DNA of 61,578 nucleotides, filler included, from Globobulimina sp. (Eukaryota), in NCBI GenBank assembly GCA_003354225.1. It is 20 parts of 20 records of this genome, joined end to end, with 100 filler letters (N's around TTAATTAATTAA, not from the genome) between each part and the next. Parts side by side here need not be neighbours in the genome. Positions count along the whole stretch, not along the records: positions 15,429 to 18,413 come from PIVH01004134.1; 19 more parts are not named here. One strand, 5' to 3'. Each line of letters opens with the position of its first letter. Position 1 is the first letter of the stretch. A model generated the notes under the pieces. That model did not search any database. It was not told where the DNA came from and saw only the letters and a list, made by a program, of their open reading frames with translations. Positions 14,833 through 20,906 of the stretch are shown in pieces. Made by a program: the position numbers and the translations under genes.

Positions 14833-15120
14833 TTAATCACTTTCCTCCTCACTTTCATCCGTAGCTTGTTCACTCAATACATCCAAATAATCTTTTTCTA
14901 AGAAACCTAAATCTTCTCTAGCTTCGGCAAATTCACCTTCTTCCATTCCTTCACCAACATACCAATGAACAAATGCTCTCTGAGAATACATTAAATCATA
15001 TTTTTTGCTGATTCTTTCACTGAATAATCTTGAAATTGCCGTATTGTTTCCAATCATTACAACATTTCTTTTTGAAGGCGCAATATCATCAAATTTTAAT
15101 ACTGCGGTTGGTTGATTCTT
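14833..15120 (-). CDS. Alpha-tubulin C-terminal fragment, divergent alpha2-type, joined in frame to non-tubulin sequence
   Basis: [60 protein letters not shown] followed by an acidic tail. Confidence 0.9.
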
Positions 15121-15428
15121 CCAATTTGAAGAATTTGATCGCGAATTATAAGAATTTGAAGAATAACTAGAATTATATGGATCGCTAAAATTTTCATTAA
15201 TTAATTTTTGTATAATTTTAATTTCTTTTTCTAATTCATTATCATTACATTTTTTCATTTCTTTACCAAAATATTTCAAAAATTTTGGAAATATTATTGT
15301 TTTATATTTCTGTTTATTTGGTGATTGANNNNNNNNNNNNNNNNNNNNNNNNNNNNNNNNNNNNNNNNNNNNTTAATTAATTAANNNNNNNNNNNNNNNN
15401 NNNNNNNNNNNNNNNNNNNNNNNNNNNN

Positions 15429-15747
15429 AGATATTCATAGTCCATCGGGATTGGAAGTATTAATGAATGATGGGAATTGGCATAGATACGAAGCAATATC
15501 TAACACATTTGTTGTTAATTTTGGCGATATTATGGCCAGATTTAGCAATGATATGTTTAGATCGACCGTGCATAGAGCTGTTAGTCCTAAATCTAGATCA
15601 AGACATAGCATTGCTTTCTTTCGGCATTGCAATTTTGATACACACGTTGATAATTTGAAAGAGGATGAAATTGCAAAATATAAACCTATTGTTGCTGGCC
15701 AACATATGTTGGATAGAGTGGAAAGAGCAAATAAAGCTTTGTTTTGA
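15429..15747 (+). CDS. 2OG-Fe(II) oxygenase (IPNS-like), C-terminal part
   Basis: GLEV...FVVNFGDIMARFSND.FRSTVHRAV...RHSIAFF contains the distal His and the RxS motif. Confidence 0.88.
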
Positions 15748-15876
15748 GTAAGTCCTTGTCATTCAAACTGAAAACTGTTTAATAAATATTGTATTGTATT
15801 ATATTAAAAATTCGTGGTCTAGATCTAACGTATAAATTCAAAACAAAGTTAAGCTATAAAAATATAAAAGAATGGG

Positions 15877-17022
15877 TCATGAGTCATGATCAACGGCAAT
15901 AACCTGCGCACTCTGTTTAACTGTCAAAGTCCCATCAGACTTAGAAATACTATCATGTATAGCATCCACAACTAGATTTACTAATTTTATGCCTTTGACA
16001 GGTTCATAGGTCGACACACTCACTGTGAATAATGGCGGAGCTACTAATTTTATTTTTAGATTCATATCGTCCTTCGCATTATTATTATCGTCGGATTTTA
16101 TGTCGCCACCAACGGCTAAGCCTTCTTTTAATGATCGTTTGATGGCATCCACGCCTTCATGCGTAAAACAAGTAATTTCTACCTTTGCGCGTACAGTCAC
16201 AATTTGCGGCTTTAACCGTTTTTCAATATTCTTCTGCAAAAACGGTTGTACATCCTTTGGGACATTGGGATATTTTATCAGAAACTGCTCCCAATTATTC
16301 ATCGCAAATTTAAATCCATCGTATAAATGGCCGTAATCTTTGGCACATTTAAAGCCAAACAGTTTATACAAATCCTTCATAGAATATTTCTTTTCTGATA
16401 ATACCGAGACTTGCCGCATGATAGAATGCGATGCCTTGGATTTATTCCTGTTGTACAGGTACAGTATTTGCAATATTTTATTGCAATCTCAATGGCACAG
16501 AACACACACCATCGATCTTCCACTTTTGGTATCTCCTCCGCGTCCACCCGCTTTTTACTCAAATCGATGAAATGTTTGCTGCGATTTACCCGCAATACTT
16601 GCACAATTTCTTGCCGCCCCTCTTTGATCACACGTTTTACGGAACGTATTCTTCTTCGTTGCAATTCTGACATTAATAACATCCCTAAATCGCATATTGA
16701 TTATATTTAAATGTGTGAGTCATTCAAATTATTATTATATTGTGCAAGGATGTACTGTACCTTCGAGGTTATTATATTCCAATAGATTGCAATAAGCGCC
16801 CATGTCGACAATTTTTTTCACTTCAACAATTACTAAATCACCAGTGGCTGGATAATCATTTTCGTACATTCGACATTTCAATGGGTCGCCACCGGATAAT
16901 TGTTCGTGTAAAGAATCATCAGATCCTGATTCGTATTCTGACTCTGTCACTGATTCTTCTGCGTCTTCGGCCGATTTTGCATCAGTACTGTCGGCATTTT
17001 TTTGTTGATCAGCTGAACTCAT
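15877..17022 (-). CDS. EIF2S1: Eukaryotic translation initiation factor 2 alpha; exons 17022-16761, 16684-16510, 16447-15877
   Basis: CRMYENDYP, MGAYCNLLEYNNLEG|MLLMSELQRRRIRS, IDLSKKRV, EITCFTHEGVDAIK and IKLVAPPLF. Two GT-AG introns (76 and 62 bp) restore one continuous frame. Confidence 0.96.
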
Positions 17023-17374
17023 GTTTGTGGTAAAGGTTTTTAATAATAAATAATTAGTTCTAATGTTAAGTGTCAGTATCAATATTGTGTACGTGTAAAA
17101 ACCAAGAGTCAATATGAGGAACGTTTAATGAACAACAATATACACAAAAAAACATCAAAAACATTTGTTTTCAGAAAAAAAACAAAAAACAACTACTGTA
17201 TACAGTGCGGACAACAAACACATACTCAATAAAACCAACAAAAAAAAGTTCCAAACTAATGCATATAATAAGCAAAACCAACACAAATAACGTCTTTCAC
17301 AAAATTTTGCACAAAAATAATAATACAATATATTCTAAGATGAATTGGACATTAATTTAATTATTATGTACTAA

Positions 17375-18413: not shown

Positions 18414-18513
18414 NNNNNNNNNNNNNNNNNNNNNNNNNNNNNNNNNNNNNNNNNNNNTTAATTAATTAANNNNNNNNNNNNNNNNNNNNNNNNNNNNNNN
18501 NNNNNNNNNNNNN

Positions 18514-20906
18514 ATTGGGGTCAATTTGATGCCTGATTTCAATGTAAAAAATAATCGCCAGTAACTACGCATGGATTTGGCTTTGATTCTGGCAAAATGG
18601 TCATCGAACCATAATCCAAGGTATCTGGCCGAGCTTTCATATTTTATTGGAACTGAGTTTATATTATACTTACTTATCTGGATTTTTTTATTCGTTTTCT
18701 GGTCAATCTGTTCTCTGAATTTTGGATAATATTTTATAGGTTTGGCATGGTAGAGACTCATTGATAGGCATTTGGATGGATTTATGAGTAGCTGCCATTT
18801 TTCACACCAATCCCCGAAATTATTGAGCTCTTTTTGGAGAAACTTATACCGGATTGGATCTTTTGTGCCGGGGCTGGTCCAGAATGCAGTATCGTCTGCA
18901 AAACATGCAAAATGGACAAAATTTGGATATTTTAGTTGGAAATCATTTGTAAAAATTATATAGAGGATAGGGGATAAGGCAGATCCTTGTGGAACACCAA
19001 TTGGTTGAGCCACCTAATTTGACTCTGCGTTTTTAGCGATGTATGAATGATGCAAGAACTTTCAGCATATTTTCTTTGATATTAAGCCGTTATGCCATAC
19101 ACTGTCATATGCTTTGGAGAAGTCCGTAAAAACGACATCAGTATAAAAATTCCAGTATCCGGGGAATACTCCCTCCGTCAAGCATTTGTTAAATAAGGGA
19201 AGCAAACATTCAATGAGAGATTCTCCGCCGTGTTTAATCATTTGGTTATGTATTCTGTCCGGACCATATGCTTTATGCGTGTCCAGTTTCTTTATTACAG
19301 ATCTGATTTCATATTTTAATATTTGGTATTCATTATTGGGTATATTTATCGCAGTATTTATTTGTGAAGGGTTTCGGATTTCGGATTGTTTATTTTGCGT
19401 CAATTTATCCTCAACTATGCAGTGTGTAAGTCATTTGGGTCATTTATAGGATCATTTCTATGGTTATTAATGAATTCCGGAACAAATTTATTTATATATT
19501 TATGCCATTCATTATGGGCAGGACTAGTTTTTGGTTTTGGAGGTCTTGTCATGGCTTCCTGCAAAGCCTTTGCCTGTTTGTGTGGATCAATTATATTCAA
19601 ATCATTTTTAAAGTTTAATGGGGGAATGTTATTTGTGTTAATGTCATTTGATTTATTATTGGATATTGTTCGCCAGAATCTGCGTCCATAATCTTTGCAT
19701 GTTTGGATGTATTTATTTATTCTATCATTATATTTGGCTTTGGCAGTTTGTATCGCTTTGATTTTTTTCGACTGTAATGCATTTAATATGGGCTTCAATC
19801 GTTTATAACTGGGAAATATATGGAAATCAGTAGAATATCGTTTTGCTTTTTTCTTCATTCGCTGTATTCTGCGTCGAAGACTTTTGCATTTCTTCTTCAA
19901 TTTTTTTATTTTATTGTTCCACCATGGTTTGTGACCACGATAATAATGTTTATATCCAATTGATTGTTCTGCAGTATACAATATAAAATATGTAAGCTGC
20001 TCTGTATATATATTTGGGTCTGGATCAAAGACTGTGTCATTTATATTATTTTCTAGTGTTTCTGTGTATTTATTCCACTTTTTGTGGTCCGACAAGTTCC
20101 ATGTTTTTTTTGTTTCACTAAAACCAAAAACATTCTCCACTTCAAAGGTGGTAACGATGGGAACGTGGTCGGAGCAGTTTTGTTCTTACATTGAATGAAG
20201 GATAGACCAGTTTGTATGCTTCAAATTATCAGAGATTAAAGTTAGATCAATGGAGGATTTTGTTTTATACGATCTATTGATATGTGTATAGGATGGATTT
20301 GTAATATTTAAAATTTGCATTCCAAGGAAGTTCAAGGCATCAACAAATTCATTGGACTCATTTGTGGATGAATTGCTGCCCCAAATAATGTTTGGGACAT
20401 TGAAATCTCCAGCAATTACATTTTTAGCAACATTCAAGGGATAATTGAATATTTAGTCAATATTTGGATTGCGTGGACAGTTGTAAAGGGAATGTATTCC
20501 TATGTCTTGGTCGCCGCAATGAAGTATTATACTGGTTATATGGCAGTTTTTTGTGTGACTATTTCGGTTATAATTTGCTGGGCAGTTTAACGGAGTGACC
20601 ACCAATGTTTCTCTGTATAATATCGCTGTTTCTGTACCAGTATAATGGACTTTATATTTTGGGAAATATTTGATTGGGAATTCAATGGAATGTGTTTCAT
20701 TTTTGCTATCAATATATGTGGATTTTTTCGGAGTCACTGCATAACGTAAAGTTGCACTCCATATGTCTCCATTCTTGGAGCAAAAGGAAGTCAATTTGCC
20801 GAGATATTAATATTTGATTAATTCTACGGCACTTATTTTCTTGTGACATTTTTGTGGGACTTATTAGTCCGCTTACATTATATTGCAATATATTATATTT
20901 TACCAT
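18514..20906 (-). mobile_element. Decayed non-LTR retrotransposon (LINE) ORF2: AP endonuclease plus reverse transcriptase
   Basis: APE motifs: ILQYNVSG, FLLLQE, IAGDFN, SSIDLT, SDHVPI. RT motifs: KAYGPDRI, DFSKAYDSVWH, GVPQGSALSPILY, FADD, RYLGLWFD. The element is broken by frameshifts, stops and deletions. Confidence 0.93.

Follow-up and report, generated by a model that had tools for sequence, protein, structure and literature searches.

Canonical eIF2-alpha is phosphorylated by the kinases GCN2, PERK, PKR or HRI and then inhibits eIF2B. Here we describe an eIF2-alpha gene of Globobulimina sp. (assembly GCA_003354225.1) in which the phosphorylated residue, Ser51, is replaced by Gln; it lies on the minus strand of a stretch of 61,578 nucleotides, filler included, that was joined from parts of 20 records and is referred to below as the window. 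Several systems without this acceptor residue are known. Engineered S51A alleles (yeast SUI2-S51A, mouse knock-in) carry a non-phosphorylatable residue 51 in an otherwise functional factor, and we take them to be the closest functional analogy to the window gene. Viral mimics, namely poxvirus K3L and ranavirus vIF2-alpha, share with it an eIF2-alpha-like S1 domain without the phospho-acceptor. Archaeal aIF2-alpha has the same fold, and works without Ser51-type regulation and without eIF2B. The window gene differs from each of these. It is one member of a conserved foraminiferal group, which we call type B, that in related species coexists with a canonical paralog, type A.

The gene reads from 17022 to 15877 on the minus strand, in the part of the window taken from record PIVH01004134.1. 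When spliced by script from the window coordinates, it yields a three-exon gene for a full eIF2-alpha of 1008 nucleotides in frame, with 335 codons and one terminal stop. Its features are listed below with the evidence for each; 1kl9_A is human eIF2-alpha, 2a19_A is yeast eIF2-alpha in complex with PKR, and X5, X6 and X8 are public sequencing runs.

15877..17022, minus strand: type-B eIF2-alpha coding region, three exons and two introns, TGA stop (scripted splice; introns skipped in X5, X6 and X8 contigs).
16761..17022, minus strand: exon 1, with the start codon, the acidic N-terminal extension and the first half of the S1/OB domain (translation; residues 49-87 on 2a19_A residues 4-42).
16879..17022, minus strand: N-terminal extension, residues 1-48, acidic and Ser-rich (charge and length counts; conserved motif in alignment A1).
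16685..16760, minus strand: intron 1, 76 nucleotides, GT..AG (sequence and contig joints).
16510..16684, minus strand: exon 2, which completes the S1 domain and includes the S-loop and the strand equivalent to KGYID (translation; gap-free on 1kl9_A 44-100).
16659..16661, minus strand: CAA codon for Gln96, the equivalent of Ser51 (alignment to 1kl9_A).
16620..16642, minus strand: codons of residues 58-64 (VKRVIKE), with the B-specific changes L61V and V64E in or adjoining helix 58-63 (fixed-difference screen).
16563..16577, minus strand: KHFID in place of KGYID (residues 79-83), that is, G80H and Y81F (alignment to 1kl9_A).
16448..16509, minus strand: intron 2, 62 nucleotides, GT..AG (sequence and contig joints).
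15877..16447, minus strand: exon 3, with the helical domain and the alpha-beta C-terminal domain and almost no acidic C-terminal tail (translation; PF07541).

The two altered sites were located by alignment. Exon 2, which translates as MLLMSELQRRRIRS...KHFID, was searched against all PDB chains with phmmer, and its 57 residues give a gap-free alignment with 1kl9_A, residues 44-100; Gln therefore stands on Ser51, and KHFID (AAA CAT TTC ATC GAT, 16577..16563) stands on K79-D83, the KGYID motif. A sequence-only reading of the window had claimed an intact eIF2-alpha with these two replacements, and the alignment bears it out. It had also noted that the CAA codon is at least two substitutions from any Ser codon. 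This is correct: the nearest, TCA, is two substitutions away.

The remainder of the protein has the makeup of canonical eIF2-alpha (human EIF2S1, yeast SUI2), with an S1/OB-fold N-terminal domain, helical and alpha-beta C-terminal domains, and an Arg-rich S-loop, RRRIRS, identical to that of the human chain. The equivalents of Gly30-Ala31-Tyr32 and Met44 are also intact. PF07541 matches exon 3 at 1.7e-25 (89.7 bits, cut-off 22.8), and the same exon aligns to the eIF2-alpha chains 9h74_A and 3j81_j. The S1 family PF00575 scores just below its cut-off on exon 2 alone (21.2 bits, cut-off 22) because intron 1 splits the domain; on the Nonionella protein, which is 84% identical, it reaches 42.2 bits. 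Residues 49-87, from exon 1, align to residues 4-42 of the yeast chain. Since window residue 49 corresponds to yeast residue 4, the N-terminal extension amounts to 45 residues, in agreement with the earlier estimate. Compared with the canonical factor, the window gene is thus set apart by Gln (CAA) where kinase-regulated members have Ser or Thr51, by KHFID where they have KGYID, by L61V and V64E, by the acidic 45-residue extension, and by the virtual absence of an acidic C-terminal tail.

Four public runs (X1, X5, X6, X8) were compared with window positions 15850..17100. Contigs of X1 retain the introns and span both motifs with 0 differing letters (records 2, 4 and 5), but X1 is perhaps the assembly's own sample and so does not count as independent support. 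The other three runs come from three other studies, and each has contigs that omit exactly 62 and 76 bases at the predicted introns. The joint 16683/16760, which skips 76 bases, is found in two contigs of X5, one of X6 and one of X8; the joint 16446/16509, which skips 62, is found in the same numbers. The skipped stretches end CT..AC on the plus strand, equivalent to GT..AG on the gene strand. One X8 contig extends upstream of the gene to 17053. An intron-less form with these exact borders is what is expected of a spliced transcript, and type-B sequences also occur in the transcriptome-derived protein sets of four named species. Together with the scripted splice and the PF07541 match, the contig joints uphold the earlier description of an intact open reading frame, two introns and an intact C-terminal domain.

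The same comparison informs on selection. Forty differences between window and contigs are listed, of which a script places 34 at third codon positions, six at second positions and none at first positions. Synonymous changes make up 31 of the 40, against 21% expected from random single changes in the coding sequence (binomial p 3.6e-14), and all four differences listed in exon 2 are synonymous. The type-B gene is under purifying selection, and the mostly synonymous listed variants speak against neutral evolution. No difference at the CAA or KHFID codons is among those listed for any of the four runs, in support of both motifs as read from the window; for X5, X6 and X8 this means that none is listed, which is not proof.

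Related proteins fall into two groups. A first search with exon 3 as query, in which the longer proteins were examined, found 10 proteins, with Gln at the Ser51 position in eight, Val in P0011 and Ser in P0013. A full-length search with P0007 then gave 133 matches among 1797 candidates; the best 120 of the 133 were listed, the counts for types A and B rest on these listed matches, and the type of proteins outside the first tree described below was set by identity to the window protein and by motifs. Type B comprises 24 of the listed database proteins (P0004-P0012, P0014-P0026, P0028, P0041). Site 51 is covered in 23 of them and is Gln in 21, Val in one (P0011) and Ser in one (P0021). Chance and error are thereby excluded as sources of the Gln, as the sequence-only reading had argued for base-call error from the codon. 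Residues 79-83 read KHFID in 16 of the 24, KGYID in three, KQFVD in two, and NGYID, QQYIN and KHVID in one each; KGYID is retained only by the basal members P0012, P0024 and P0026. The nearest row to the window protein, at 83-84% identity, is P0014 of Nonionella stella. Other type-B proteins with a species name are P0004 of Elphidium margaritaceum, an 85-residue member of the P0005 cluster from Rosalina sp., and, from Bolivina argentea, P0025 and the divergent P0011.

Ser51 and KGYID are found in all 18 listed proteins of the second group (P0027, P0029-P0040, P0042-P0046), whose identity to the window protein is 48-54%, compared with at most 44% for any other eukaryote. Named type-A proteins, again all with Ser51 and KGYID, are P0030 of Ammonia sp., P0042 of Elphidium margaritaceum, P0036 and P0039 of Nonionella stella, P0038 of Globobulimina turgida and P0037 of Bolivina argentea. 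A Ser51-bearing second copy, the search for which the sequence-only reading had proposed, is therefore present in relatives, and three species with a name (Elphidium margaritaceum, Nonionella stella and Bolivina argentea) each have both types. Both types have Met47 in common (ILMSELS in A, LLMSELQ in B); type A differs from B in keeping Ser51, Gly80 and Tyr81, and its S1 domain is nearer to the eukaryote consensus.

Two observations on individual species belong here. Bolivina argentea has three forms of eIF2-alpha: type A (P0037), type B with Gln51 and KHFID (P0025), and a diverged form, B2, with Val51 and QQYIN (P0011). P0011 groups with P0021, which has Ser51 and KHVID; from this it follows that the B lineage has duplicated again and that site 51 is drifting within it. 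In the type-B transcript of Elphidium, P0004, about 60 residues are repeated internally (…FAMNDWNAFLAKYP… is present twice). The repeat probably stems from an error of transcriptome assembly, and the protein was left out of the trees.

The relationship between the two types was examined with two maximum-likelihood trees of 57 rows each, inferred with IQ-TREE under LG+C20+F+G4 by posterior mean site frequencies (PMSF) and with a 'quick' search. The first tree omits P0004, fragments shorter than 280 residues (P0017, P0019, P0020, P0022, P0023, P0025, P0028), P0032, P0037, and 56 of the 78 other-eukaryote rows. In both trees, the window protein is nested inside eukaryotic eIF2-alpha, and type A, P0027 and type B form one Foraminifera-specific clade with a support of 99 in the Shimodaira-Hasegawa-like approximate likelihood ratio test (SH-aLRT; 32 and 21 rows, respectively). 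Type B is itself a clade with SH-aLRT 99 in both (17 and 12 rows), with the window protein inside it beside P0014. P0027, which has Ser51 and KGYID, is sister to type B at a support of 88 in the first tree, and is unplaced in the second. Within type B, the Gln51 members with KGYID or NGYID (P0024, P0026 and P0041, then P0012) branch first and are paraphyletic, and the KHFID core is nested among them.

On these trees, type B goes back to a gene duplication in the Foraminifera or shortly before them, and stands beside canonical type A. With other eukaryotes as the outgroup, the branching places the duplication first, the change of Ser51 to Gln second, with KGYID intact, and G80H and Y81F last. 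Such an order is compatible with a constraint on kinase docking that was relaxed after the acceptor was lost.

Loss of the acceptor is rare more widely. A profile of 16 type-B proteins (alignment A1) was searched with HMMER over 1.84 billion representatives and matched 5829 proteins at E <= 0.001. The best 150 of the 5829 were aligned with the window protein in MAFFT; site 51 is S in 120, T in 15, Q in seven, V in three, H in two and a gap in three, so that 135 of the 147 covering the site have Ser or Thr. Five of the remaining 12 are type B and seven are outside the named type-B clade, which makes the loss rare, but not confined to B. Among the seven, P0154, P0177, P0211, P0248 and P0250 are long, scattered branches, suggestive of independent acceptor losses.

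The other two, P0185 and P0212, both have Gln; they form a pair adjoining the foraminiferal clade and may belong with type B. A search from P0212 at E <= 1e-40 matched only P0185 and P0026. In an approximately unbiased (AU) test, the constraint that joins B, P0185 and P0212 in one clade gave p 0.718 and a log-likelihood 14.5 above that of the quick free tree; given that the group was named after inspection of the tree and that the branches are long, a single origin of B, P0185 and P0212 is not proven.

To locate the differences between B and its relatives, sites were screened that are conserved in at least 85% of 14 type-A rows and 76 other-eukaryote rows, but that differ in core B, where at least 80% of 11 rows share the new state. 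Only 12 sites pass. The S1 domain has six: D16G, S51Q, L61V, V64E, G80H and Y81F. In the helical domain, two substitutions pass together with an insertion of two residues; the C-terminal domain contributes a Y-to-F and a P-to-A change. Gly80 and Tyr81 are invariant in the 14 type-A and 76 other-eukaryote rows, and Ser51 is kept in all 14 type-A rows. Identity to the eukaryote consensus follows the same division: 0.705 in B and 0.856 in A for the S1 domain, 0.555 and 0.607 for the helical domain, and 0.492 and 0.494 for the C-terminal domain, which is as conserved in B as in A.

The changed S1 positions can be read against published structures. In the accessible part of one study, KGYID is described as the interface with the eIF2-alpha kinases; once eIF2-alpha is phosphorylated, an overlapping surface meets eIF2B-alpha, and within the pre-initiation complex the motif is in contact with uS11 (10.1101/501411). 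Accessible sections of a second report that, in the productive complex, a cation-pi bond joins Tyr81 to Arg250 of eIF2B-delta, that the S-loop takes on a new fold upon phosphorylation and so uncovers hydrophobic residues for binding to eIF2B-alpha/delta, and that the C-terminal domain of canonical eIF2-alpha links to eIF2-gamma (10.1101/504654). Helix 58-63, according to the available portion of a third, touches eIF2B-delta in the complex formed by phosphorylated eIF2-alpha, and Met-tRNAi within the ternary complex (PMC6572841). As the B-specific changes of the S1 domain fall at Ser51, in or adjoining helix 58-63 and at Gly80/Tyr81, the extra divergence of B is concentrated on the face that serves kinase and eIF2B regulation. 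KHFID retains Lys79, an aromatic ring at 81 (Phe), Ile82 and Asp83, and these residues also serve contacts with eIF2B and the ribosome.

The ends of the protein differ as well. In 10 core-B rows, the N-terminal extension before a conserved Cys has a median of 50 residues and a net charge of -15, against 10 residues and 0 in 76 other-eukaryote rows; the 49 residues preceding this Cys in the window protein are strongly acidic. The C-terminal tail has a median of 5.5 residues in core B, against 32 residues and a charge of -10 in other eukaryotes. Type A is intermediate, with an N-extension that is shorter and near neutral and a C-tail that is longer than in B. The acidic tail thus seems to have swapped ends, B having a long acidic N-extension and almost no C-tail, and other eukaryotes the reverse. 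The N-extension carries a motif conserved in core B, YESGSDDSL..QLSGGDP (alignment A1), and in the window protein eight S/T-x-x-D/E sites, which we take to be of the casein-kinase-2 type. An AlphaFold2 model of the Nonionella B protein has a mean predicted local distance difference test score (pLDDT) of 75.1; the extension is disordered, with pLDDT below 50 for residues 1-50. The model matches human eIF2-alpha in eIF2-eIF2B complexes (9hve_K, 6o81_L) over 283-284 columns, with a target template modelling (TM) score of 0.81-0.82.

Of the two alternatives offered by the sequence-only reading, a lineage that lost or rewired the control and a kinase-resistant paralog, it is the second that fits the data, by way of the sister clades, splicing, purifying selection and B-specific changes on the regulatory surface. 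We consider it rather probable that B enters into an eIF2 which no kinase can turn into an inhibitor of eIF2B, and that it thereby damps the integrated stress response. B would pair with eIF2-gamma and eIF2-beta and deliver Met-tRNAi, a role inferred from its conserved C-terminal domain and from the S-loop and fold that it has kept. It would not be phosphorylatable at position 51, and would dock poorly both on the eIF2-alpha kinases and in the inhibitory pocket of eIF2B-alpha/delta. A cell with both types would then hold two pools of eIF2, of which A is convertible into the eIF2B inhibitor and B is not. B would restrict how much eIF2 could turn inhibitory, act as a competing substrate of eIF2B and lower the gain of the response. 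Phosphorylated A would still inhibit the shared eIF2B, so B would damp the response rather than bypass it in full.

A broader version of this proposal is possible, though we hold it more tentatively. Foraminifera, and possibly a wider group given the Gln51 of P0185 and P0212, may run two eIF2 systems, one canonical and switchable by kinases, the other built on a kinase-blind B that stays outside the inhibitory eIF2B pocket. The ratio of B to A would set the strength of the stress shutdown, and the acidic, Ser-rich N-extension that replaces the C-tail would be a new regulatory handle. Such cells would be a natural and ancient equivalent of a heterozygous S51A cell.

Several points weigh against a damping role for B. 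Its incorporation into eIF2, its resistance to kinases and its effect on eIF2B are all inferred, and the foraminiferal sequences compared are of eIF2-alpha alone. The presence of type A and of eIF2-alpha kinases in the window organism is extrapolated from relatives. Site 51 is not strictly Gln in B, being Ser in P0021 and Val in P0011, and L61V is a conservative change. The starred branches of the 'quick' trees are less reliable with long rows, and the columns of the trait itself were kept in the alignment. Finally, that X5, X6 and X8 are RNA is a guess; no run is on record as RNA.

Two other roles for type B are each unlikely in our judgement, and to a similar degree. In the first, B would be a decoy or regulator that does not deliver Met-tRNAi, either serving the kinases as a pseudosubstrate or occupying eIF2B without inhibiting it, in the manner of the viral eIF2-alpha mimics, with which it shares the missing acceptor. 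The basal members P0012, P0024 and P0026 would suit a pseudosubstrate, as they keep the KGYID that one needs, on the example of K3L in the accessible text of 10.1101/501411. That text describes K3L as a mimic of eIF2-alpha domain 1 that keeps KGYID for binding PKR. Core B, the window gene included, has an altered docking motif (KHFID in 16 of the 24 listed matches), the Arg-rich loop has been kept, the model matches eIF2-alpha in all three domains, and the C-terminal domain, which in the canonical factor is the connector to eIF2-gamma, is as conserved as in A; all of these argue against a decoy.

In the second, control would be rewired, with B switched by phosphorylation elsewhere, for example in the Ser-rich acidic N-extension. 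The conservation of this extension in core B, its eight S/T-x-x-D/E sites in the window protein and its position in place of the acidic C-terminal tail of other eukaryotes all favour such a switch. Against it, the putative phosphosites are a pattern match of the kind expected in any acidic Ser-rich stretch, and the extension is predicted to be disordered. Rewiring of this kind is compatible with a kinase-resistant B that damps the stress response.

Far less probable is a loss or rewiring across the lineage, whereby Foraminifera would have only Gln51 eIF2-alpha and would no longer use the eIF2-alpha kinases. It was suggested by the window, where the Gln51 gene is the sole eIF2-alpha, and no type-A protein of the window organism is among the proteins compared. 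As far as the named relatives go, it is contradicted by type A with Ser51 and KGYID in five named foraminifera, alongside B in three. Types A and B belong to one clade, so A is not foreign, and the retention of Ser51, Gly80 and Tyr81 in 14 of 14 type-A rows implies that the site is still in use. A decaying duplicate or an assembly or base-call artefact, for which the N gaps nearby (about 15373-15432) might speak, is refuted by the intact frame, splicing in the runs of three studies, synonymous changes in 31 of 40 listed variants, and a Gln that is common to 21 independent relatives and two changes from any Ser codon.

The window gene can also be set against the known systems named at the outset. 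Engineered S51A alleles differ from type B in that B is natural, old and conserved, coexists with a wild-type paralog and has additional changes on the docking surface. Unlike K3L, the window gene has all three domains, a changed KGYID, and a nuclear setting with spliceosomal introns; membership in the K3L-like pseudosubstrate class was rejected for it on account of KHFID in place of the KGYID surface. Identity with archaeal aIF2-alpha was ruled out by a weak match (2aho_B at an E-value of 2.5e-4, against about 1e-13 for eukaryotic chains; fold-search identity of 26-27% against 37-40%) and by placement among eukaryotic eIF2-alpha.

In the full-text literature covered, with subscription journals and supplements outside that coverage, neither a foraminiferal or rhizarian eIF2-alpha without Ser51 nor a pair of eIF2-alpha paralogs was found described. 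Likewise, the accessible portions of PMC3359775 and PMC4881399 make no mention of a Ser51-less paralog. The latter, in the portion available, does describe an eIF2-beta of Reticulomyxa filosa whose N-terminus is of a distinct kind and lacks the customary lysine blocks (PMC4881399), which makes this a second eIF2 subunit that is atypical in foraminifera.

The rest of the window is ordinary. Its GC (guanine and cytosine) content is 29-38%, and the other genes are ordinary nuclear ones, for an SPB4-like DEAD-box helicase, a cation efflux protein, a DnaJ protein, an NAD(P)H-hydrate dehydratase, and WD40, BTB and VWA proteins; neither a kinase nor an eIF2B gene is among the annotated genes of the window. 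Three stretches near the eIF2-alpha gene are listed below.

18513..19013, minus strand: open frame matching RVT_1 (PF00078, 1.2e-13), with N gaps at both ends, about 1.5 kb upstream of the eIF2-alpha gene in window coordinates; probably a retroelement fragment.
15433..15744, plus strand: fragment of a 2OG-Fe(II) oxygenase (PF03171, 2.9e-13), which converges with the eIF2-alpha gene at the latter's 3' end and is truncated on its own 5' side by the N gap at about 15373-15432.
14833..15372, minus strand: open frame whose last 50 or so residues, as we take it, resemble the C-terminus of alpha-tubulin, joined to an unrelated Asn/Ser-rich stretch after an N gap; no Pfam match was found on 14836..15327, and the frame may be a tubulin gene exon or an assembly join.

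The finding may have a bearing on how foraminifera control translation in dormancy, starvation or anoxia. Ser51 is among the most conserved regulatory sites of eukaryotes, and type B beside an untouched type A is a natural experiment on the share of the eIF2 pool that needs to be open to regulation. In addition, the series from Ser51 with KGYID, through Gln51 with KGYID, to Gln51 with KHFID provides natural variants with which to part the kinase-docking role of KGYID from its roles at eIF2B and the ribosome.

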